Assembly: GCA_965248365.1 (NCBI GenBank)
Contig: CBDFJA010000004.1
Coordinates: 662,187-726,186, forward strand
Source: Bryobacterales bacterium
GTDB lineage: Bacteria > Acidobacteriota > Terriglobia > Bryobacterales > UBA6623
Reading direction: 5' to 3'
DNA: 64,000 nucleotides
Part shown: positions 444 to 61,609 of the stretch, piece by piece
Layout of the letters: each line of letters begins with the position of its first letter
Position numbering within the stretch: the first letter of the stretch is position 1
Position numbers and translations under genes: made by a program
Notes under the pieces: generated by a model
The model's input: only the letters and a program-made list of their open reading frames with translations
Told to the model about the DNA's origin: nothing
Database searches by the model: none

Positions 444-622
444 GGGAGGCGAAGTGCGTGAGAGGCCCCTCAGTACAAGGCGCGCGCCGCCCAGCGCCCC
501 GTTTCTTGAACCATGCGGGCTCCTTCCTTGATCCCTACGTTGAACACGGCGAGCAAGCGCAACGCAGTAATGGCGGGCCTATTGCGTGCTTCGACCGTCA
601 GGTGGTGAGAAATGCGGGCTAG
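444..622 (+). repeat. R1 repeat, copy a (left terminus missing)
   Basis: Aligns to the other R1 copies from GGCGAAGTGCGTGAGAGGCCC through GTGGTGAGAAATGCGGG|CTAG (619-622). Confidence 0.85.
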
Positions 623-1227
623 GATCGCCAGCGGTTGACGAACCATTTCGTCCGCCGGACGTCACAAAGCCGCGGGTCCGGACCTTCTTCCCCGAGAAGA
701 ACCGCCAGCCGCTCCAGATGGCTCCAACCGCAAATGACCAGCGTATTGCGAGTCCGGCCGCCGTGCCGCCTCAGCTTGTCGTACATGAACCGCTCTCGGA
801 GCGCTTGCCAGCGGGCGACTTGCCCGGATGGATATCGGGCGTCCGGCTGGAGATAGTCGCCCGGAATCCCCAGCTTGCGTCTTTCTTGCTTGACGGCGTC
901 AATGGTGACGTATTCGCATCCGTGGGTGTCGGCGAGTTTTTGAGCGATGGTTTCCTCCCCGGCGCGGGTCTCCTCACCGATCAAATCGATCGCATGCTTG
1001 CCGATCAGCCCCTCCAGCATCCGCAAAAAATGATGCTTCTGACCGTGTTCGATCTCGGCGTCGCCAATACCGAGGCTCGCCCTCGGCTGCAAGCTGTGTT
1101 CGCAGCCTACCAAAACGATTGTGGCCGGCAAACTTTGATTGCCTCTCCAAAGTTCGCCGCCGCGCCCCCACCAAGTCGGCCAGGGAACACCCGCCCGCGC
1201 GGCCCCGAAACAACCGTCTGATCGCAT
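619..1227 (-). CDS. Conserved hypothetical protein
   Basis: 202-aa ORF with protein-like segments (IVLVGCEHS, AIDLIGEE, LVICGWSHLERL). Its TAG stop (619-621) lies in the CTAG flank of R1 copy a, as seen for three other genes. The overlapping plus-strand ORF 586..1221 is less protein-like. Confidence 0.45.
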   Translation of the reverse strand: MRSDGCFGAARAGVPWPTWWGRGGELWRGNQSLPATIVLVGCEHSLQPRASLGIGDAEIEHGQKHHFLRMLEGLIGKHAIDLIGEETRAGEETIAQKLADTHGCEYVTIDAVKQERRKLGIPGDYLQPDARYPSGQVARWQALRERFMYDKLRRHGGRTRNTLVICGWSHLERLAVLLGEEGPDPRLCDVRRTKWFVNRWRS

Positions 1228-1460
1228 CGGATCTCTTATCGGTCAAGACGCTGGAATCGCACCGCACAGCGGAACGTCTGGCGGCGCGCCGGTCTACACG
1301 ACGTTCGAGATCCCGGCGTTGGGGAAGAACTTCTTGCGATGAGGTATTGGGGCAGCGCCGTGTTCGCTGCCTCCGGCCAAGGACCGGTAAGATTGCCGGT
1401 CCCTGCTGCGCGCCGCGCCTCGCCGTAAGCGCCGAACGCGAAAACGCCTACCAGACTACT

Positions 1461-1540
1461 GATCCTAGCGACGTGGCGCACGCTTCCAGCGTGCTGTGTC
1501 GGGCTTTCGAGCCCGACATTTCCGAATCTATAATGAGTTC
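1461..1540 (+). repeat. R2 structured repeat, copy a (short form)
   Basis: GATCCTAGCGACGTGGCGCACGC..GCGTGC, followed by a perfect 9-bp hairpin TGTCGGGCT-TTCG-AGCCCGACA (1497-1518). Homologous to 28228-28370 and 49153-49363. Confidence 0.8.
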
Positions 1541-1557
1541 GTCTCCAGGACAGTTTG

Positions 1558-1757
1558 CTAGCTCGCTTTTCTCACCACGTGGCGAGGCGAAGTGCTTGAG
1601 AAGCCCGTCAGTACAAGGCGCGCGCCGCTCAGCGCCGCATTTCTTTAATAATGCGGGCGTACTTGAACCCTACGTTGAGCACGGTGAGCAAGCGCAACGC
1701 GGTAGTGGCGGGCTTATTGCGTGCTTCGACCGTCAGGTGGTGAGAAAAGCGAGCTAG
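1558..1757 (+). repeat. R1 repeat, copy b (full length, CTAG/CTAG flanks)
   Basis: CTAG|CTCGCTTTTCTCACCAC ... GTGGTGAGAAAAGCGAG|CTAG. The terminal inverted repeat is perfect and the element is one long imperfect palindrome. Confidence 0.9.
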
Positions 1758-2863
1758 TCGCTCGCGGACTCTTCGCCCCCAGGCGCGCCAACATTATCGG
1801 GCATCTCCGCGGTCAGCGCTTCCATGAACGCGACCAGGGCGTCGCGCTCCTTGCGAGTCAGATGGTCGAGCTCCTTGAGCTCCTTGTCGCGCCAGGGGTT
1901 GGAATTGCCGGCGCCGATGTAGAAGTCCACAACGTCCTTGAGCGTCGTCAGGCTGCCGTCGTGCATGTAAGGCGCTGATTGCGCAATGTTTCGTAGTGTG
2001 GGAGTTTTGAAGGCGCCCCGGTCCGCATCCTGCTTGGTCACTTCATAGCGGCCCAGGTCGCTCAGCTCGCCCTCGTCGTCGACGCCGACGCCCAGGTTGT
2101 GGAACTTGTTGTCGCTAAACAGCGCCGATTTCTCGTCGATACTGTGGCAAACGGCGCAGTTGCCTTTTTCCTCGTTGCGGAACACCTCCAAACCGAGTTT
2201 GGCGGACTCGCTCAACACCGACTCGTCGCCGCCGTACATGTAGCGGTCGAAGGGCGAATTCCCGCTGAGAACCGTTCGCTCAAAAGAAGCGATCGCCTTG
2301 ACGACCTTGTCGAAGGTTACCGCACCGGGCCCGTAGGCTTTTTCAAATCGCGCCACGTAGCCGGGGTCGCCCGAGAGATCGCCGACCACGCCTTCGACAG
2401 TATGCGCCATCTCAATGGGATTCTGCATCGGCCCGCCGGCCTGGTCTTCGAGGCTGGCGGCTCGCCCGTCCCAAAACTGCGTCGTGTAGTAGGCCGCATT
2501 GATCACGCTGGGCGCCTGCCGGCCGCCTTTCTTGCCGCCTACGCCGCTCGAAAACTGGTCCGGGTCGGCGAAGCCAGCGTCAGGCCGGTGGCAAGAGGCG
2601 CAGGCGATCGTGCCGTCCACCGACAGCAAGGGATCGTAGTAAAGTTGCCGCCCCAGAGCGATGGTTTCCGCCGTCGGCGGATTGTCTTCCGGGATGGGCA
2701 AGGGCGGCAACCCGAGCGGAACCGAGATTTCAACAGTCTCCCCAATCAACTTCGCGGCCGGGGGGGCGACTTCGGGTTCCGGCTGCGGCGCACACGAGAT
2801 GCCAAGAAGAACAATCGCGGATACGGACAGGGCAACCAATTTGAAACGAAGAGCAGCTGTCAC
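1754..2863 (-). CDS. Di-haem cytochrome c peroxidase (CCP/MauG family)
   Basis: 369 aa with a signal peptide, two CxxCH haem motifs (CASCH, CAVCH) and the FKTPTLRN motif typical of bacterial CCPs. Confidence 0.85.
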   Translation of the reverse strand: MTAALRFKLVALSVSAIVLLGISCAPQPEPEVAPPAAKLIGETVEISVPLGLPPLPIPEDNPPTAETIALGRQLYYDPLLSVDGTIACASCHRPDAGFADPDQFSSGVGGKKGGRQAPSVINAAYYTTQFWDGRAASLEDQAGGPMQNPIEMAHTVEGVVGDLSGDPGYVARFEKAYGPGAVTFDKVVKAIASFERTVLSGNSPFDRYMYGGDESVLSESAKLGLEVFRNEEKGNCAVCHSIDEKSALFSDNKFHNLGVGVDDEGELSDLGRYEVTKQDADRGAFKTPTLRNIAQSAPYMHDGSLTTLKDVVDFYIGAGNSNPWRDKELKELDHLTRKERDALVAFMEALTAEMPDNVGAPGGEESASD

Positions 2864-3161: not shown

Positions 3162-3434
3162 CTAACCCGTTTTTCTCACCACGTGGCGAGGCGAAGTGCG
3201 TGAGAGGCCCGTCAGTACAAGGCGCGCGCCGCTTGGCGCCGCATTTCTTGAATGATGCGGGCGTACTTTCGCGGGTGCAGCCTAGCCATTCGTATTGTGG
3301 CTCTAGCGAAAGAAGTAGCGACCCGCGTTCGACGCCCGACCGGGAAAGTACATTGAGCAAGGCGAGCACGCGCAACGCAGTAATGGCGGGCCTATGGCGT
3401 GCTTCGACCGTCGGGTGTGAGAAATGCGGGCTAA
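3162..3434 (+). repeat. R1 repeat, copy c (CTAA/CTAA flanks, expanded apex)
   Basis: CTAA|CCCGTTTTTCTCACCAC ... GTGTGAGAAATGCGGG|CTAA. 81 nt lie between the two apical GTAC motifs (3263-3266, 3348-3351), against 7 nt in other copies. Confidence 0.85.
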
Positions 3435-5064: not shown

Positions 5065-5598
5065 TCAGAAACCTTCGAGCACGGCGGAAACCAGGCTCCG
5101 CGCCAACCCGTCGCCCGTCCGCGCCAAGGCGGCCCGCCTCTCCTCCAAATAGGCTTCCGGATCGATCGTGACCTCGTAGCGCTCACGGTACTCGAAGGCC
5201 GGGTTCTGGTAGATCACCTTGGCCGTGTTGCGCTCGATCAACGCGACCTGGACCTGGGTCAGAGTGGCAACGCTGGTCGACCGGCCCGTCTTGGGGTCGA
5301 ACACGACGGGGAAAACGAAGAAGTTGAGTACCGTGCCCGTCAGGGTCGCGTCGGCCTCCGCCGGGTCGCTGACGATCCGATAGCGCGTGCGCGTCATGAA
5401 TTCCTGTGCGACCGCGCTGGTCACGTACTGCTCGATCTTGAATTCGGTCGTGTTGTTTCTAAACGTGGGAATGGCGATGGTGTGGACGGTATCGGGTACC
5501 GTGTCGGCGCGTCCCGCCAGGCGATAGCCGCAGGAGCCGGCGGAAAAAGCAACCGCCAACCAGACGACGGCGGAACCATACGCGGGGTTAACGCGCAT
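5065..5598 (-). CDS. lptE: LPS-assembly lipoprotein LptE-like
   Basis: 177 aa with a lipoprotein signal ending in a lipobox (AFSAGSC). Followed by IAIPTFRNNTTEFKIEQ. The lptE-holA gene order is conserved. Confidence 0.7.
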   Translation of the reverse strand: MRVNPAYGSAVVWLAVAFSAGSCGYRLAGRADTVPDTVHTIAIPTFRNNTTEFKIEQYVTSAVAQEFMTRTRYRIVSDPAEADATLTGTVLNFFVFPVVFDPKTGRSTSVATLTQVQVALIERNTAKVIYQNPAFEYRERYEVTIDPEAYLEERRAALARTGDGLARSLVSAVLEGF

Positions 5599-5660
5599 TT
5601 CTCACCACCTGACGCCTCTCGCGCACTTCGCCCCGCCAGCTGGTGAGAAAAGCGGGTTAG
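5588..5660 (-). repeat. R1 repeat, copy d (73-bp internally deleted mini-copy, TTAA/TTAG flanks)
   Basis: Retains both R1 termini (TTAA|CGCGCATTTCTCACCACCTGACG ... CTGGTGAGAAAAGCGGG|TTAG). It overlaps the lptE start codon. Confidence 0.8.
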
Positions 5661-7348: not shown

Positions 7349-7486
7349 CTAACCTGCTTTTCTGCTTTTGAAATAGGCCCTGTCTGTAACATGAATTACG
7401 TTACGGGGCATATTTTCATTTCGCGGGCCGGACGAAGTTCATCGTCACTCACCAGGTGGCGAGGCGAAGTACGTGAGAGGAGCGGG
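7349..7486 (+). repeat. R3 repeat, copy a (R1-like terminus, different core)
   Basis: CTAA|CCTGCTTTTCTGCTTTTGAAATAGGCCCTGTCTGTAACATGAATTACGTTACGGGG..., ending in an R1 left-arm-like CTCACCAGGTGGCGAGGCGAAGTACGTGAGAGG. Homologous to 61328-61520 and 30440-30490. Confidence 0.7.
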
Positions 7487-28227: not shown

Positions 28228-28370
28228 CTGATCGTCCGGGTAACGTGGCGCACGCATTCTTGCGTGCCGTGTCGCCATTCGTGGCGACATCGAGTCTCGG
28301 CGTGGCCCCGGCTTTCAGTGTGCTGTGTCGAGCTTTCGATCCCAACATTTCCGCATCTATTGTGAACTCA
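28228..28370 (+). repeat. R2 structured repeat, copy b
   Basis: CTGATCGTCCGGGTAACGTGGCGCACGCATTCTTGCGTGCC, then a perfect hairpin TGTCGCCA-TTCG-TGGCGACA (28270-28289), then ...GCTTTCAGTGTGCTGTGTCGAGCTTTCGATCCCAACATTTCC. Confidence 0.8.
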
Positions 28371-28383
28371 TTTCAAGGGCGGG

Positions 28384-30439: not shown

Positions 30440-30490
30440 ATGCCGTAACGTAATTCATGTTACAGACAGACCTATTTTCAAAATAGAAAG
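30440..30490 (-). repeat. R3 repeat, copy b (core fragment)
   Basis: ATGCCGTAACGTAATTCATGTTACAGACAGACCTATTTTCAAAATAGAAAG matches the R3 core in reverse orientation. Confidence 0.7.
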
Positions 30491-31884: not shown

Positions 31885-32092
31885 GCCCGCACTTCTCACC
31901 AGCGACCGGCAGCCGTGGAGCAAAAACCGGCCGGCGGGGATGCCCGGGCACGGCATGCCCTGCCCCAGGCGCGATTCATAGCGCCGGCTTGCAGACAGAC
32001 TGTACGCTGGACGATATACACAAACTGTTGCCGCGAGTCCTGGCCATCGGGTCTTCCCGATCGCCGTGACAGTGGAAAGAAAAGCAGGCTAG
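31881..32092 (-). repeat. R1-related repeat, copy l (CTAA/CTAG flanks, divergent interior)
   Basis: CTAA|GCCCGCACTTCTCACCAGCGACCGG ... GTGACAGTGGAAAGAAAAGCAGG|CTAG. The interior contains an R5-like near-palindrome GGGCACGGCATGCCCTGCCC. Confidence 0.65.
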
Positions 32093-44705: not shown

Positions 44706-44981
44706 TCAGTTCGTCTCGCGAATGCAGAATAGCGCCGTCTCGCTGCGCAGGAGAATTTCGCCGTTGGCGATCGCTGGCGAGGCAACGAAGGTCTGTCCCG
44801 CAAGCGTGTTGGTCGCCAGTACTTCGTACTTCTCTCCCATTTTGAGGACAATCACGTCCCCCTCTTCGCTCGACAGGTAGAGTTTGCCGTTGGCGCCGAC
44901 GAGCGAGGCCTTGAACTTGTAAGGTTTGGGGGGGCGCTGCTGTTTGTAGTAGGGCACCCCGGTCGTGGCGTTATAGCAGCT
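44706..44981 (-). pseudogene. C-terminal fragment of a beta-propeller (PQQ/BamB-like repeat) protein, 5' part removed by IS copy A
   Basis: ...GANGKLYLSSEEGDVIVLKMGEKYEVLATNTLAGQTFVASPAIANGEILLRSETALFCI. The reading frame runs straight into the IS end at 44982. Confidence 0.55.
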
Positions 44982-46310
44982 CAGTGCTGTCCGGAGAAAG
45001 TCGCGCCATCGGACGGTAAGTCTCGACCGTTCAATGTCTTATGGCCTGTTTTGCCCGGGAACGATTTGAAATCCCGAGGCCGCAAATGGTCGCCTGAACG
45101 GAGCATCCGGACGCGGCACAATGAGGGATGAACCTTGGCCGTACGGTTTTCTCCCAACTGATCGAGCACCTACCGAGCAAAGAGTTTCAGAAATGTGTAT
45201 CGCGCTACCGCGGCGATTCCTATCTGAAAAGTTTCTCCTGCTGGGATCAGTTTCTTGCGATGGCATTCGCCCAGCTGACCTATCGGGCAAGCCTCCGCGA
45301 CATCGAGACGTGCCTGCGTTCGATGCACGGCAAACTCTACCACATGGGATTCCGCGGCAGGGTAGCGCGCTCGACACTGGCCGATGCGAACGAGTCGCGC
45401 GACTGGCGGATCTACGCGGACTTCGCGCAGGTCTTGATTGGCATGGCACGGCCGTTATATGCCCACGACCCGATCGGTGTGGACTTGGACCAGACTCTGT
45501 ACGCTCTCGACTCGACAACAATCGACCTCTGCCTGTCGCTGTTTCCGTGGGCGAGATTCCGCAAGCAAAAGGCCGCCGTGAAGATGCCCACGCTGCTGGA
45601 TCTGCACGGCAATATTCCCACGTTCATCCGCATTACTGGAGGCAAAGTGCACGACATCAACATCCTCGACGAGATCGGCCCGGAGGCCGGCGCGTTCTAC
45701 GTCATGGATCGGGCCTACGTCGATTTCGAACGCCTCTTCGTGTTCACTCTCTGCTCGTCGTTCTTCGTCGTGCGAACCAAGAAGAACATCTTGCTCCAAC
45801 GGCGCTACTCGCATCCCGTCGACAAATCCACGGGCTTGCGCTCGGATCAGACCGTCATACTGGCTGCCATCGAATCGGCCCAAGCCTATCCCGACCCGTT
45901 GCGGAGGGTCAGTTACTTCGACGCCCGGACGAACAAGCGGCTGAAGTTTCTGACCAACAACTTCGCGCTCCCGGCGCTGACCATCGCCCACATCTACAAG
46001 TCGCGTTGGCAGATTGAGTTGTTCTTCAAGTGGATCAAGCAACATCTGCGAATCAACTCGTTTTACGGCACCAGCGAGAACGCCGTCAAGACGCATATCT
46101 GGATCGCTGTCTCGATTTACGTGCTCATCGCCATCGTCCGGAAACGGCTCGGGCTGGAAGCGAGTCTTTACCAGATTCTACAGATTCTCAGCGTTACGCA
46201 ATTCGAAAAAATGCCCCTTTTACAGGCACTCCAGCCATCCGACTCCCCAAACGAATCCCCCTATGACCCCAACCAATTGATTCTATTCGACTTTTAACCG
46301 GACAGCAGTG
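44982..46310 (+). mobile_element. 1329-bp IS (IS4/IS5-superfamily), copy A
   Basis: Ends CAGTGCTGTCCGG... and ...CCGGACAGCAGTG. Nearly identical to copies B and C. Confidence 0.9.
45128..46297 (+). CDS. DDE transposase of the 1329-bp IS (copy A)
   Basis: 389 aa. The N-terminus MNLGRTVFSQLIEHLPSKEFQKCVSRYRGD..KSFSCWDQFLAMAFAQLT is typical of DUF4372-type IS4-family transposases. FYVMDRAYVDF and SRWQIELFFKWIKQHL motifs. Confidence 0.9.
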   Translation: MNLGRTVFSQLIEHLPSKEFQKCVSRYRGDSYLKSFSCWDQFLAMAFAQLTYRASLRDIETCLRSMHGKLYHMGFRGRVARSTLADANESRDWRIYADFAQVLIGMARPLYAHDPIGVDLDQTLYALDSTTIDLCLSLFPWARFRKQKAAVKMPTLLDLHGNIPTFIRITGGKVHDINILDEIGPEAGAFYVMDRAYVDFERLFVFTLCSSFFVVRTKKNILLQRRYSHPVDKSTGLRSDQTVILAAIESAQAYPDPLRRVSYFDARTNKRLKFLTNNFALPALTIAHIYKSRWQIELFFKWIKQHLRINSFYGTSENAVKTHIWIAVSIYVLIAIVRKRLGLEASLYQILQILSVTQFEKMPLLQALQPSDSPNESPYDPNQLILFDF

Positions 46311-47037: not shown

Positions 47038-48366
47038 CACTGCTGTCCGGTTAAAAGTCGAATAGAATCAATTGGTTGGGGTCATAGGGGGATTCGTTTG
47101 GGGAGTCGGATGGCTGGAGTGCCTGTAAAAGGGGCATTTTTTCGAATTGCGTAACGCTGAGAATCTGTAGAATCTGGTAAAGACTCGCTTCCAGCCCGAG
47201 CCGTTTCCGGACGATGGCGATGAGCACGTAAATCGAGACAGCGATCCAGATCTGCGTCTTGACGGCGTTCTCGCTGGTGCCGTAAAACGAGTTGATTCGC
47301 AGATGTTGCTTGATCCACTTGAAGAACAACTCAATCTGCCAACGCGACTTGTAGATGTGGGCGATGGTCAGCGCCGGGAGCGCGAAGTTGTTGGTCAGAA
47401 ACTTCAGCCGCTTGTTCGTCCGGGCGTCGAAGTAACTGACCCTCCGCAACGGGTCGGGATAGGCTTGGGCCGATTCGATGGCAGCCAGTATGACGGTCTG
47501 ATCCGAGCGCAAGCCCGTGGATTTGTCGACGGGATGCGAGTAGCGCCGTTGGAGCAAGATGTTCTTCTTGGTTCGCACGACGAAGAACGACGAGCAGAGA
47601 GTGAACACGAAGAGGCGTTCGAAATCGACGTAGGCCCGATCCATGACGTAGAACGCGCCGGCCTCCGGGCCGATCTCGTCGAGGATGTTGATGTCGTGCA
47701 CTTTGCCTCCAGTAATGCGGATGAACGTGGGAATATTGCCGTGCAGATCCAGCAGCGTGGGCATCTTCACGGCGGCCTTTTGCTTGCGGAATCTCGCCCA
47801 CGGAAACAGCGACAGGCAGAGGTCGATTGTTGTCGAGTCGAGAGCGTACAGAGTCTGGTCCAAGTCCACACCGATCGGGTCGTGGGCATATAACGGCCGT
47901 GCCATGCCAATCAAGACCTGCGCGAAGTCCGCGTAGATCCGCCAGTCGCGCGACTCGTTCGCATCGGCCAGTGTCGAGCGCGCTACCCTGCCGCGGAATC
48001 CCATGTGGTAGAGTTTGCCGTGCATCGAACGCAGGCACGTCTCGATGTCGCGGAGGCTTGCCCGATAGGTCAGCTGGGCGAATGCCATCGCAAGAAACTG
48101 ATCCCAGCAGGAGAAACTTTTCAGATAGGAATCGCCGCGGTAGCGCGATACACATTTCTGAAACTCTTTGCTCGGTAGGTGCTCGATCAGTTGGGAGAAA
48201 ACCGTACGGCCAAGGTTCATCCCTCATTGTGCCGCGTCCGGATGCTCCGTTCAGGCGACCATTTGCGGCCTCGGGATTTCAAATCGTTCCCGGGCAAAAC
48301 AGGCCATAAGACATTGAGCGGTCGAGACTTACCGTCCGATGGCGCGACTTTCCCCGGACAGCACTG
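47038..48366 (-). mobile_element. 1329-bp IS, copy B
   Basis: CACTGCTGTCCGG at 47038 and CCGGACAGCACTG ending at 48366. Inverted relative to copy A. Confidence 0.9.
47051..48220 (-). CDS. DDE transposase of the 1329-bp IS (copy B)
   Basis: 389 aa, with 1 aa difference from copy A (H/Q). Confidence 0.9.
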   Translation of the reverse strand: MNLGRTVFSQLIEHLPSKEFQKCVSRYRGDSYLKSFSCWDQFLAMAFAQLTYRASLRDIETCLRSMHGKLYHMGFRGRVARSTLADANESRDWRIYADFAQVLIGMARPLYAHDPIGVDLDQTLYALDSTTIDLCLSLFPWARFRKQKAAVKMPTLLDLHGNIPTFIRITGGKVHDINILDEIGPEAGAFYVMDRAYVDFERLFVFTLCSSFFVVRTKKNILLQRRYSHPVDKSTGLRSDQTVILAAIESAQAYPDPLRRVSYFDARTNKRLKFLTNNFALPALTIAHIYKSRWQIELFFKWIKQHLRINSFYGTSENAVKTQIWIAVSIYVLIAIVRKRLGLEASLYQILQILSVTQFEKMPLLQALQPSDSPNESPYDPNQLILFDF

Positions 48367-48980
48367 ATGCAAGCTAGCAAGCCGCCGACCGCCATCAGCA
48401 TCATCAAATAGGGAGCCGCTACCGGGTCGAACACGCCGAAGAGTTCACTGGCCGTCTTCGAACCCACCCAGGCGCCCAGGGAACTGCCCACGCCGACCAA
48501 AGGAAACAGCCGCTTGCCCTGCTCTTCGGTAAAAACGTCGTTCGCGAAGGCCCAAAACTGCGCGATCACCAGAACATTAAAAATGCCGATCCACAGAAAG
48601 AAGGCCACGCCGACCCGTACGCCCGAGACGCCCAAGACAGCGAAGATTCCGAGATGAGAGATGAAAGAAAGCGTCACCCAAGTAATCAGGCGAGTGCGGT
48701 TGACCTTGCCCGCAAACGCTCCGTAAGCAGGGACCACGGCCAGCAGCAGAAGAGCCTGGCCCGCCGCGGCATAGCTCTTGATCTCAGCGCCGCCCTCGCT
48801 GAGGATGAGGGCTTCCCGGACCGTCTTGAGCAGATAGTAAGAGGCGAGCAGCAGGAATACATTGGCGGCGAGTAACAGCGCGGTGGCGCCTTCGCCGGGT
48901 TTGACCTGGCTGAAAACCGAAAGGGCCTTGTCCAGAAGCCCTTTCTTCCCCTCCGCGATGGGCTTAACAACCTCTTGCAT
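48367..48980 (-). pseudogene. 5' fragment of a TLC/AAA-family (ATP:ADP antiporter-like) transporter, truncated by IS copy B
   Basis: MQEVVKPIAEGKKGLLDKALSVFSQVKPGEGATALLLAANVFLLLASYYLLKTVREALILSEGGAEIKSYAAAGQALLL... Only about 200 aa (6 helices) remain before the IS end. Confidence 0.5.
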
Positions 48981-49152: not shown

Positions 49153-49363
49153 CTGATCCTCCAGGCGACGTGGCGCGCGCATTCTTGCGTGCCGTGTCGC
49201 CATTCTTGGCGACATTTCTCATTGCTGCGCCGGCCCTTCTGCCGGGCATTGGGATGCCGGCAAGCATGCCGGCACAGCACGCTGAAAGCGTGCGCCACGT
49301 CGTTGTCAAGCCGATCAGATCCTGTCGCTTTCGAGCCCGACATTCTCAAATCCGTGGTGAACC
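49153..49363 (+). repeat. R2 structured repeat, copy c (long form with inverted duplication)
   Basis: CTGATCC..GACGTGGCGCGCGCATTCTTGCGTGCC, the hairpin TGTCGCCA-TTCT-TGGCGACA, ... GCACGCTGAAAGCGTGCGCCACGTC..GATCAG, ending TGTCGCTTTCGAGCCCGACATTC. Confidence 0.8.
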
Positions 49364-49814: not shown

Positions 49815-49888
49815 TGGGAGGTAGTGTAACGGTAACACGACAGATTCTGGATCTGTTTATCGGGGTTCGAGTCCCTGCCTCCCAGCCA
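49815..49888 (+). tRNA. tRNA-Gln (anticodon CUG)
   Basis: Manual cloverleaf: acceptor TGGGAGG/CCTCCCA, D arm GTGT-AACGGTA-ACAC, anticodon arm ACAGA-TTCTGGA-TCTGT, T arm CGGGG-TTCGAGT-CCCTG, G73, encoded CCA. 74 nt. Confidence 0.9.
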
Positions 49889-51130: not shown

Positions 51131-52459
51131 CACTGCTGTCCGGTTAAAAGTCGAATAGAATCAATTGGTTGGGGTCATAGGGGGATTCGTTTGGGGAGTC
51201 GGATGGCTGGAGTGCCTGTAAAAGGGGCATTTTTTCGAATTGCGTAACGCTGAGAATCTGTAGAATCTGGTAAAGACTCGCTTCCAGCCCGAGCCGTTTC
51301 CGGACGATGGCGATGAGCACGTAAATCGAGACAGCGATCCGGATCTGCGTCTTGACGGCGTTCTCGCTGGTGCCGTAAAACGAGTTGATTCGCAGATGTT
51401 GCTTGATCCACTTGAAGAACAACTCAATCTGCCAACGCGACTTGTAGATGTGGGCGATGGTCAGCGCCGGGAGCGCGAAGTTGTTGGTCAGAAACTTCAG
51501 CCGCTTGTTCGTCCGGGCGTCGAAGTAACTGACCCTCCGCAACGGGTCGGGATAGGCTTGGGCCGATTCGATGGCAGCCAGTATGACGGTCTGATCCGAG
51601 CGCAAGCCCGTGGATTTGTCGACGGGATGCGAGTAGCGCCGTTGGAGCAAGATGTTCTTCTTGGTTCGCACGACGAAGAACGACGAGCAGAGAGTGAACA
51701 CGAAGAGGCGTTCGAAATCGACGTAGGCCCGATCCATGACGTAGAACGCGCCGGCCTCCGGGCCGATCTCGTCGAGGATGTTGATGTCGTGCACTTTGCC
51801 TCCAGTAATGCGGATGAACGTGGGAATATTGCCGTGCAGATCCAGCAGCGTGTGCATCTTCACGGCGGCCTTTTGCTTGCGGAATCTCGCCCACGGAAAC
51901 AGCGACAGGCAGAGGTCGATTGTTGTCGAGTCGAGAGCGTACAGAGTCTGGTCCAAGTCCACACCGATCGGGTCGTGGGCATATAACGGCCGTGCCATGC
52001 CAATCAAGACCTGCGCGAAGTCCGCGTAGATCCGCCAGTCGCGCGACTCGTTCGCATCGGCCAGTGTCGAGCGCGCTACCCTGCCGCGGAATCCCATGTG
52101 GTAGAGTTTGCCGTGCATCGAACGCAGGCACGTCTCGATGTCGCGGAGGCTTGCCCGATAGGTCAGCTGGGCGAATGCCATCGCAAGAAACTGATCCCAG
52201 CAGGAGAAACTTTTCAGATAGGAATCGCCGCGGTAGCGCGATACACATTTCTGAAACTCTTTGCTCGGTAGGTGCTCGATCAGTTGGGAGAAAACCGTAC
52301 GGCCAAGGTTCATCCCTCATTGTGCCGCGTCCGGATGCTCCGTTCAGGCGACCATTTGCGGCCTCGGGATTTCAAATCGTTCCCGGGCAAAACAGGCCAT
52401 AAGACATTGAGCGGTCGAGACTTACCGTCCGATGGCGCGACTTTCCCCGGACAGCACTG
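51131..52459 (-). mobile_element. 1329-bp IS, copy C
   Basis: CACTGCTGTCCGG at 51131 and CCGGACAGCACTG ending at 52459. Same orientation as copy B. Confidence 0.9.
51144..52313 (-). CDS. DDE transposase of the 1329-bp IS (copy C)
   Basis: 389 aa, with 2 aa differences from copy B (P/H, W/R). Confidence 0.9.
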   Translation of the reverse strand: MNLGRTVFSQLIEHLPSKEFQKCVSRYRGDSYLKSFSCWDQFLAMAFAQLTYRASLRDIETCLRSMHGKLYHMGFRGRVARSTLADANESRDWRIYADFAQVLIGMARPLYAHDPIGVDLDQTLYALDSTTIDLCLSLFPWARFRKQKAAVKMHTLLDLHGNIPTFIRITGGKVHDINILDEIGPEAGAFYVMDRAYVDFERLFVFTLCSSFFVVRTKKNILLQRRYSHPVDKSTGLRSDQTVILAAIESAQAYPDPLRRVSYFDARTNKRLKFLTNNFALPALTIAHIYKSRWQIELFFKWIKQHLRINSFYGTSENAVKTQIRIAVSIYVLIAIVRKRLGLEASLYQILQILSVTQFEKMPLLQALQPSDSPNESPYDPNQLILFDF

Positions 52460-52557
52460 TACTTGAACAGTACGTTGAGCACGGCGAGCAAGCGCAACAC
52501 AGTAATGGCGGGGCTATTGCGTGCTTCGACCGTCAGGTGGTGAGAAATGCGGGCTAG
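52460..52557 (+). repeat. R1 repeat, copy h (right half only, cut at the apex by IS copy C)
   Basis: TACTTGAACAGTACGTTGAGCACGGCGAGCAAGCGCAAC...GTGGTGAGAAATGCGGG|CTAG. Confidence 0.85.
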
Positions 52558-54186: not shown

Positions 54187-54371
54187 CTAGCCCGCTTTTC
54201 TCACCACGTGGCGAGGCGAAGTGCGTGAGAGGCCCGTCAGTACAAGGCGCGCGCCGCTCGGCGCGCGGAGGCGTACTCGAACAGTACGTTGAGCACGGCG
54301 AGCAAGCGCAACGCCGTAATGGCGGGCCTATTGCGTGCTTCGACCGTCAGGTGGTGAGAAATGCGGGCTAG
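54187..54371 (+). repeat. R1 repeat, copy i (intact, CTAG/CTAG flanks)
   Basis: CTAG|CCCGCTTTTCTCACCAC...GTGGTGAGAAATGCGGG|CTAG. 185 bp. Confidence 0.9.
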
Positions 54372-60390: not shown

Positions 60391-60720
60391 ATGGCTGAAG
60401 ACCATAGTGATACAAGCTTGGCCTGGTTCCTGGCGGGAGCCGCTCTGGGAGCCGCGGGGGCCTTGTTGCTGGCCCCACAGTCGGGAAGCGAAACAAGAGA
60501 GGTGCTACGTCGTAGGACGCTCGAAGGCCGCGAGAGGCTGAACAAGTCGGGAAGAGAAGCCTTCGAAAAAGGCCGCGAGCTTTACGACCGTGGTAAAGAG
60601 GTGGCGGAGGACGCGGCTGAGCTGTTCGAGCAGGGGCGAAAAGTGGTTAGCGAGAAGTTTTCTCCCGTAGGCTCGGGGTCGCAGGACGGCGAACCGGAAA
60701 AGCAGGAGTCAGCCACCTAA
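60391..60720 (+). CDS. YtxH-domain protein
   Basis: LAWFLAGAALGAAGALLLAPQSGSETREVLRR followed by a charged helical tail. 109 aa. Confidence 0.75.
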   Translation: MAEDHSDTSLAWFLAGAALGAAGALLLAPQSGSETREVLRRRTLEGRERLNKSGREAFEKGRELYDRGKEVAEDAAELFEQGRKVVSEKFSPVGSGSQDGEPEKQESAT

Positions 60721-60916
60721 CCTGCGTTTCTCACCAGCTGACGGTCGAAGCACGCCATAGGCCCGCCATGACTGCGTTGCGCTTGCTCACCGTGCTCAAC
60801 GTACTGTTCAAGTACACCCGCATTATTCAAGAAATGCGGCGCCGAGCGGCGCGCGCCTTGTACTGAGGGGCCTCTCACGCACTTCGTCTCGCCACGTGGT
60901 GAGAAACGCAGGCTAA
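60717..60916 (-). repeat. R1 repeat, copy j (full length, CTAA/CTAA flanks)
   Basis: CTAA|CCTGCGTTTCTCACCAGCTGACGGTCGAAGCACGCC ... GCCACGTGGTGAGAAACGCAGG|CTAA. Confidence 0.9.
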
Positions 60917-61327
60917 CTTCTTTTACGGGCCGCCAACCCTCTTTTCTCACGACGGCTGCGGTGAACAAGGCTAAAAGGCGCGGTGGCCAGGGAGCGCGGC
61001 AACAGGTTATCTACATCACCCGGCGTACACTATCTCGCCAAGCGGGCGCGATTGATCGCCGAGTTGTCCGAATTAGCCGTCTGCTAACCGAGGCGTGGTT
61101 TCTACAGGAAAAATTTGCCCCAGGAGGCTTCGGCAGGGCAGGCCCTCGAGTAGAAACCTGCTGCTGTCCGACTAATCACGGCCCCGCATCCCTGATGGCG
61201 GGGCTTTGGTCCGCTGAACGGCCAACCTGAAACTCAAATTGGGCGGGGCCCGGCCCTTCTGCCGGCGTTGACCGATAAACTCAATCGTTCCAACAAGTTT
61301 CCCGCCTGAGGGTCCGGCCGGTACCCA

Positions 61328-61520
61328 CTAGCCCGCATTTCTCGCCACCTGACGGTCGAAGTGCGCCATAGGCCCGCCATTACGTCGTTACGTTTGTCCA
61401 CCGCGCTCAACCGGTGGTGAGTCACCATGAACTTCGTCCACCCCGCAGCACGAAAATATGCCCCATAACGTAATTCATGTTACAGACACGGCCTATTTTC
61501 AAAACAGAAAAGCGGGTTAG
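61328..61520 (-). repeat. R1/R3 hybrid element (CTAG/TTAG flanks)
   Basis: The left part equals the R1 right arm in reverse (CTAG|CCCGCATTTCTCGCCACCTGACGGTCGAAGTGCGCCATAGGCCCGCC...). The right part equals the R3 core (...CCCCATAACGTAATTCATGTTACAGACACGGCCTATTTTCAAAACAGAAAAGCGGG|TTAG). Confidence 0.75.
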
Positions 61521-61536
61521 TTGCGAGAAATGCGAG

Positions 61537-61609
61537 AAGCCGGGAAGGTGTGTTTCAGGGGTCTTTTGGTTGAGGTTTGTCTCGCTTTGGTGGGGTTGCC
61601 TCCCCGGCT
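61537..61609 (+). repeat. 73-nt direct repeat, unit a (self-complementary ends)
   Basis: GAAGCCGGGAAGG...CAGGGGTCTTTTGGTTGAGGTTTGTCTCGCTTTGGTGGGGTTGCCTCCCCGGCT. Matches 61811-61886. Confidence 0.7.

Follow-up and report, generated by a model that had tools for sequence, protein, structure and literature searches.

R1 is a mobile MITE family of the Bryobacterales (Acidobacteriota), a non-autonomous DNA transposon, and about one R1 copy in four starts at the base after a stop codon, with the stop itself lying inside the duplicated target. Very probably, this overlap is explained by three things together: the properties of R1 as a MITE, its duplication of the tetranucleotide YTAR, and the loss of insertions that break genes. 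Under this explanation, the position on the stop codon is largely a by-product. The analysis began from a window of 64,000 nt, the whole stretch of DNA examined here, and was extended to R1 copies elsewhere. The features of the window are collected in Table 1.

Table 1. R1 copies, related repeats, and neighboring genes in the window (TSD, target-site duplication; TIR, terminal inverted repeat; CCP, di-haem cytochrome c peroxidase; handles beginning with L denote other loci)
Feature	Position	Strand	Remarks
R1 copy A	60721-60912	+	reference orientation, L end 60721; full length, 192 bp; precise empty site in L188
Left TSD of copy A, CTAA	60717-60720	+	holds YtxH TAA stop 60718-60720
Right TSD of copy A, CTAA	60913-60916	+	
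YtxH-domain gene, 109 aa	60391-60720	+	Pfam PF12732; stop inside TSD
R1 copy B	~445-618	-	L end 618; far TIR lost; decayed remnant in L185, element missing in L186
CTAG at copy B	619-622	-	holds TAG stop 619-621 of 202-aa gene
R1 copy C	1562-1753	-	L end 1753; full length; missing from orthologous locus L185
TSD of copy C, CTAG	1754-1757	-	holds CCP TAG stop 1754-1756; partner TSD 1558-1561
CCP ORF	1754-2863	-	stop 1754-1756
Repeat X	1441-1557	-	117 bp, unrelated to R1; between copy C and original downstream flank of CCP stop
R1 copy D	3166-3430	-	78-bp internal insertion; TTAG TSD on both sides; intergenic
Derivative I, 65 bp	5593-5656	+	deletion form, two terminal repeats only; flanks TTAA and TTAG
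Element H	31885-32088	+	different MITE family with R1-like terminal repeats; abuts DUF6065 stop
R1 copy F	52458-52553	-	L half only, cut by IS 51131-52459; TSD CTAG 52554-52557
R1 copy E	54191-54367	-	176-bp length variant; CTAG TSD on both sides; 88 nt downstream of SHMT stop
R1 copy G	61332-61411	+	L part only, fused to other repeat 61412-61545; CTAG 61328-61331

The family was delimited by its ends. Matches to the motif GGTGGTGAGAAANGCGGG, with up to 3 mismatches allowed, number 17 in the window against 0.3 expected, and their layout is invariable: YTAR/CCYGC...TTTCTCACC ... GGTGAGAAA...GCRGG/YTAR, the slashes marking the element borders. Because the motif always takes this inverted layout, it is the TIR and is present at both ends of each R1 copy. 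The end pair is CCYGCATTTCTCACC ... GGTGAGAAATGCRGG, and the interior is asymmetric. R1 has a size of 176-192 bp, TIRs of 18-20 bp, and a 4-bp YTAR TSD for which CTAG is preferred; in 90 copies, 93% of the TIR pair cells are complementary. BLAST and an nhmmer profile place about 10 copies or fragments within the 64-kb window, which also holds several R1 relics. The copies carry no transposase gene, and the sole ORF called within one of them is a low-scoring artefact of 58 aa. A comparison with Rfam 15 at the gathering threshold left R1 unmatched and gave a tRNA as the only match in the window, where a tRNA gene lies at 49815-49885.

Beyond the window, many Bryobacterales MAGs and 69 metagenome contigs carry R1, and its hosts are Acidobacteria of soil and sea. 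The first contig search used a pattern of 16 nt with two degenerate positions; most of its 115 loci were chance matches, and about 23 Bryobacterales loci were usable. After deduplication, the insertion sites number 156, of which 146 lie outside the window. R1 thus has the TIRs, the fixed-length TSD with an empty site, the small size, and the dispersal with presence/absence polymorphism by which a MITE is recognized. It belongs to a well-known kind of element; we found no description of the family itself in the literature searched.

Four genes of the window had been singled out by the first-pass annotation as having their stop codon within an element's target duplication. For the YtxH, CCP, and 202-aa genes, this is correct, and the element is R1. 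The homologues of the YtxH gene have 109 aa and 84-100% identity. The gene next to copy B (ORF 619-1227, minus strand) has no Pfam match; its homologues of 201-202 aa align with full coverage and lie beside CCP in other genomes. This full coverage indicates that ORF 619-1227 is a real gene with its native C-terminus. The fourth case, the DUF6065 gene, has to be set apart. Its neighbor is element H rather than R1, and one extra base separates the element from the CTAA that holds the stop (TAA 31882-31884; CTAAG/CCCGC). The far flank of H is CTAG (32089-32092), not CTAA, and its interior belongs to a repeat family other than R1, which occurs a second time at 60975-61059. A 98%-identical DUF6065 orthologue carries the same H element, with CTGAG in place of CTAAG. 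A further element of 173 bp with CTAG flanks was seen in L190 (~1750-1925), inside the regenerated CTAG at the right end of H.

Sites at which the element is missing reveal the order of events. Junction BLAST among the fetched loci returned self-matches only, and the empty sites were recovered through orthologue look-ups. A contig with a 91%-identical YtxH gene, L188, reads ...GCCAC CTAA CTTCTTTTACGGGCCGC..., with a single CTAA, and the sequence after it is exactly what follows the right-hand CTAA of copy A in the window. This precise empty site demonstrates that the YtxH stop pre-dated copy A and was preserved by the duplication. In L185, which has an orthologue of the 202-aa gene that is 92% identical to that of the window, the CCP gene ends ...GCGAT TAG and there is no copy C; the downstream flank then aligns with the window flank, and the CCP end there is TTAG. 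At copy B, L185 retains only eight bases of the repeat, and in L186 the 202-aa gene ends in CTAG with no element. Since copy B has decayed differently in L185 and in the window, insertion B is old and decaying, and C and A are younger.

These comparisons also bear on the idea that R1 might be a REP-like or IS200/IS605-type palindrome, one that inserts beside a fixed tetranucleotide and duplicates nothing. Its strongly palindromic structure and the constant presence of an adjacent tetranucleotide are what such an element would show. However, CTAA occurs once at the empty site in L188 and twice at the filled site in the window, the flanking 4-mers differ between copies but match within a copy, and long TIRs are present; the idea is almost certainly wrong. 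The REPs themselves are elements of 20-40 bp that lack TIRs and a TSD and are moved by RAYT tyrosine transposases (PMC3733652). R1 resembles REP/BIME and ERIC elements in being an extragenic palindrome just downstream of genes, and is unlike REP/BIME in its proven TSD and long TIRs.

The target of R1 is short. A logo of the insertion sites gives 1.1, 2.3, 2.3, and 1.1 bits for Y, T, A, and R, respectively, and outside these four bases there is at most 0.06 bit per position and no extended motif. In copies whose two flanks are both YTAR, the flanking tetramers are identical in 51 of 67 cases, compared with 43% by chance; the matched flanks are CTAG/CTAG (36), TTAG/TTAG (10), and CTAA/CTAA (4), so that the tetramer varies between copies. 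Relative to the number of sites available, R1 uses CTAG three to four times more often than the remaining YTAR tetramers.

A simple scheme would account for these features. A DDE-type transposase, acting in trans, would move R1, cutting at YTAR, with CTAG preferred, and leaving a stagger of 4 bases, from which the duplication of four bases would follow. Every YTAR includes TAA or TAG, whichever strand is read. In frame, TAR exists only as a stop; thus, stops preceded by C or T make up a large share of the YTAR sites at which an insertion is not disruptive. Since the first copy of the duplication stays with the gene, neither its stop codon nor its protein is altered. Insertions within genes would be removed by purifying selection, and the copies that remain would be intergenic or, for about one in four, on a stop codon, with an orientation relative to the gene that would be random. 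The first-pass annotation had likewise proposed that YTAR, which holds TAA/TAG and is duplicated, lets the element land on a stop and leave the ORF intact. This is borne out by the empty sites in L188 and in L185/L186, and by ten abutting genes whose Pfam domains, in 10 of 10 cases checked, reach the end of the profile. A target that contains a stop and is duplicated on insertion would therefore provide a "safe harbour" at gene ends with no dedicated targeting.

Duplication regenerates the target on both sides of the element, and consequently a stop codon that has been hit once can be a target anew and insertions can stack there. The CCP stop-codon target in the window was used twice, by copy C and by repeat X. 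Repeat X has internal hairpins, and further occurrences of it lie at 28298-28378 and 49269-49302.

How often R1 sits on stop codons was determined with genes called by a home-made codon-usage caller trained on these sequences, and with the elements excised to rebuild the target sites. Genes missed by this caller would inflate the number of "intergenic" null sites. Among the 146 deduplicated copies outside the window, 36 (25%) are on stop codons, 105 are intergenic, and 5 are apparently in genes; the count of 36/146 is robust to the gene-call threshold. If all YTAR sites are taken as the null, a stop share of 7.2% is expected against the 25% observed (p = 5e-11). Stop codons make up 13.8% of the non-disruptive YTAR sites overall and 20% of those that are CTAG, and when the non-disruptive sites are weighted by the tetramers used, the expectation rises to 16% against 25.5% observed (p = 0.003). 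A local null, in which the choice is among the YTAR sites inside the interval that was hit, yields 25.7/114 expected versus 33/114 observed when unweighted (p = 0.005), and 28.3/114 versus the same 33/114 when weighted for CTAG (p = 0.047). Within the window, stops account for 24 of 118 non-disruptive YTAR sites (20%), and 24 of the 51 called genes end in Y-TAR. With a share of 20%, the finding of R1 on stops at 3 of 10 sites is as expected (p = 0.33).

Together, these results indicate that the overlap with stop codons arises largely from the supply of sites plus the loss of gene-breaking insertions, and that the residue is at most 1.2-1.6-fold, the global non-disruptive null being exceeded 1.6-fold and the local one 1.2-1.3-fold. 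Part of the stop-codon excess is left over when site supply alone is considered.

The residue could reflect active targeting, in which the transposase or a host factor recognizes the context of a stop or terminator and insertion is biased to the first base after the stop. The excess over the non-disruptive null is 1.6-1.9-fold at all gene-call thresholds, the observed count also lies slightly above that of the local null, and YTAR sites with no gene end within 200 nt are under-used (ratio 0.51), all of which such a bias would produce. Long "intergenic" stretches that are under-used would, however, equally result from missed genes or other mobile DNA. Against targeting, the information outside the four target bases does not exceed the value given above. 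When the YTAR sites in the 0-50 nt downstream of stops are compared, the stop represents 57% of the unused sites and 63% of the used ones (OR 1.29, p = 0.45) and is thus not preferred to the others, and many R1 copies adjoin gene starts. Selection of gene ends as targets, as suggested at first, is thus distinctly improbable.

In the window, copies A, B, and C all have the L end toward the gene (3/3, two-sided p = 0.25), and a constant orientation relative to transcription had been claimed on the grounds that the GGTGGTGAGAAAnGCGGG end abuts the gene in each case. That observation is uninformative, since the motif is the TIR and stands at both ends; the ends have to be told apart by the interior. 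When this is done for the stop-abutting copies outside the window, 15 face the gene with L, 20 with R, and 1 with both, and orientation is unbiased at all distances from the stop up to 150 nt. Given the family-wide split of 15 L to 20 R, the 3/3 of the window is due to chance. In the non-window members of the CCCGC-type subfamily, which resemble the window copies, the stop-abutting end is R in 10 and L in 2, a weak and unexplained tendency opposite to that of the window.

R1 is also predicted to fold. The whole element pairs end to end in a hairpin of ~67 pairs, with z from -5.5 to -8.3. Over 90 copies, 89% of the pair cells are paired, and double changes occur at 21 pairs, compared with 6-11 when the partner is slid; these counts were taken on the fold of the consensus, and RNAalifold on a trimmed alignment gave almost no structure. 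In copies flanked by CTAG, the prediction places the UAG stop among the paired bases at the foot of the stem. Hairpins near stop codons matter in E. coli, as known from its REP elements. Palindromes of the REP, BIME, and ERIC types in 3' untranslated regions can stabilize mRNA, and Liang, Rudd, and Deutscher reportedly found in 2015 that an E. coli REP within ~15 nt of a stop codon lowers translation. A transcribed R1 hairpin behind a stop might likewise stabilize or terminate the upstream mRNA, or tune translation termination, and be kept by selection for this reason, as the first-pass annotation had proposed for 3' UTR hairpins. The predicted fold, the double changes, the pairing of the UAG, the E. 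coli precedent, and the mildly enriched use of sites that lie at gene 3' ends or close to them would all fit such a role.

Other properties of R1 argue against functional retention. Its palindromic symmetry is explained equally well by two transposase-binding ends as by an RNA or DNA hairpin. No intrinsic terminator, consisting of a G+C-rich stem and a U tract, was detected on the transcribed strand of copy A; the stem is not followed by a U tract, and the one weak internal terminator-like match is on the opposite strand, the wrong one for copies A-C. The copies show no bias in orientation, but a symmetric hairpin would need none. The stop-abutting copies are no more conserved than the others (0.906 vs 0.892 identity to the consensus, p = 0.52). 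Finally, copy B lacks its far TIR in the window and is almost wholly deleted in L185, decaying differently in two related genomes, and copies A and C are missing in close relatives whose genes are otherwise intact. Retention of R1 as a functional hairpin is thus unlikely.

A broader possibility is that the residual excess on stops is real and that the roughly 25% of copies located there form a genome-wide post-transcriptional layer, in a position favored by selection or by targeting. If so, a hairpin of ~67 pairs would sequester the UAG or UAA and slow termination or protect the 3' end of the mRNA, at hundreds of genes. We regard this as doubtful. Neither dedicated targeting nor functional retention is needed to account for the data, and a weak effect is possible. 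A modeled hairpin at a stop may influence expression as a side effect of insertion; were this true, many genes would have their expression affected by such hairpins.

The preferred explanation, a MITE whose YTAR duplication falls on stop codons because other sites in genes are lost, calls for a transposase supplied in trans. In ~0.9 Mb of related sequence, a search for TIR pairs 0.7-3.5 kb apart that enclose a transposase found no partner for R1. Searches for fuzzy TIR pairs spaced 0.6-3.5 kb and for generic inverted repeats flanked by YTAR gave only pairs of neighboring MITEs. With no partner found, the transposition mechanism given above is deduced from the TIRs and the TSD only.

Three candidates were rejected. 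A 1.6-kb "long copy" in L109 (6305-7920), considered as the parent, is a MITE split by a 1.4-kb insertion with a 410-aa ORF, which we judge from its sequence to be IS110-like. In L185, a transposase with the Pfam domains DDE_Tnp_1_4 and DDE_Tnp_1 lies beside an R1 copy; we take it to be of the IS1380 type, and it has no R1-like ends. The IS of the window, with DUF4372 and DDE_Tnp_1 domains, is unrelated to R1. A separate arrangement in L177 (2937-4350) resembles a composite transposon: two inverted R1 copies bracket ~1 kb and have identical outer CTAG flanks.

Several known systems resemble R1 in part. Transposases of the Tourist / PIF-Harbinger elements are related to those of IS5 and duplicate a stop-like TAA/TTA target. 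These elements differ from R1 in their 3-bp duplication and their eukaryotic hosts, and we know of no described link between them and stop codons. Literature searches likewise yielded no report of MITE duplications that overlap stop codons.

IS5 itself duplicates 4 bp of its target, for which the consensus is 5'-YTAR-3' (PMC5009759). Its target motif is enriched in non-coding DNA. R1 is like IS5 and the IS5-derived MITEs in its 4-bp YTAR duplication, its TIRs, and the enrichment of its target motif in non-coding DNA. Unlike IS5, it has no IS5-type transposase with R1 ends in the related sequence searched, and it favors CTAG, the rarest YTAR in E. coli. Its terminal repeat, CCYGCATTTCTCACCACC, is not known to resemble the ends of IS5. 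Elements of the IS701 type generate exact 4-bp duplications; their published end consensus is ---YACT-Y--YR-, which according to the same paper is not valid for the whole family (PMC2266710). Here the length of the duplication fits, but positions 4-7 of R1 are GCAT rather than YACT in register, and the ~0.9 Mb searched gave no partner transposase of this kind. As a sequence feature, then, duplication of YTAR is a hallmark of IS5 and would be compatible with IS701-type elements.

The Correia/NEMIS elements of Neisseria are co-transcribed with neighboring genes, and their RNA stem-loops are cleaved by RNase III (PMC2229807). They share with R1 the form of a short, TIR-bounded, hairpin-forming MITE and a duplication that contains TA. 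In contrast to the 4-bp YTAR of R1, their duplication is the 2-bp TA, and they belong to another phylum and have another sequence.

The overlap has practical consequences for annotation. With the stop codon inside the TSD, gene ends can be wrongly trimmed or lengthened by repeat maskers and gene callers, and assemblies tend to break exactly at gene ends.

The window and related contigs contain additional mobile and repeated DNA. An IS of 1330 bp is present in three identical copies (44981-46310, 47038-48367, and 51131-52459), the third of which cuts copy F, and it encodes a 389-aa DUF4372+DDE_Tnp_1 transposase (IS4-like). A 99.5%-identical contig, L187, has a full-length copy F plus ~790 bp that are absent from the window; this comparison suggests a recent IS-adjacent deletion in the window near copy F. 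An exact look-up of the SHMT protein, encoded upstream of copy E, gave no match. Derivative I (5593-5656) overlaps ORF 5065-5598 in the region of its predicted start. Small repeats of a third family occur at 61412-61545, where the repeat is fused to the left part of copy G, and also at 7349-7454 and 30443-30489.
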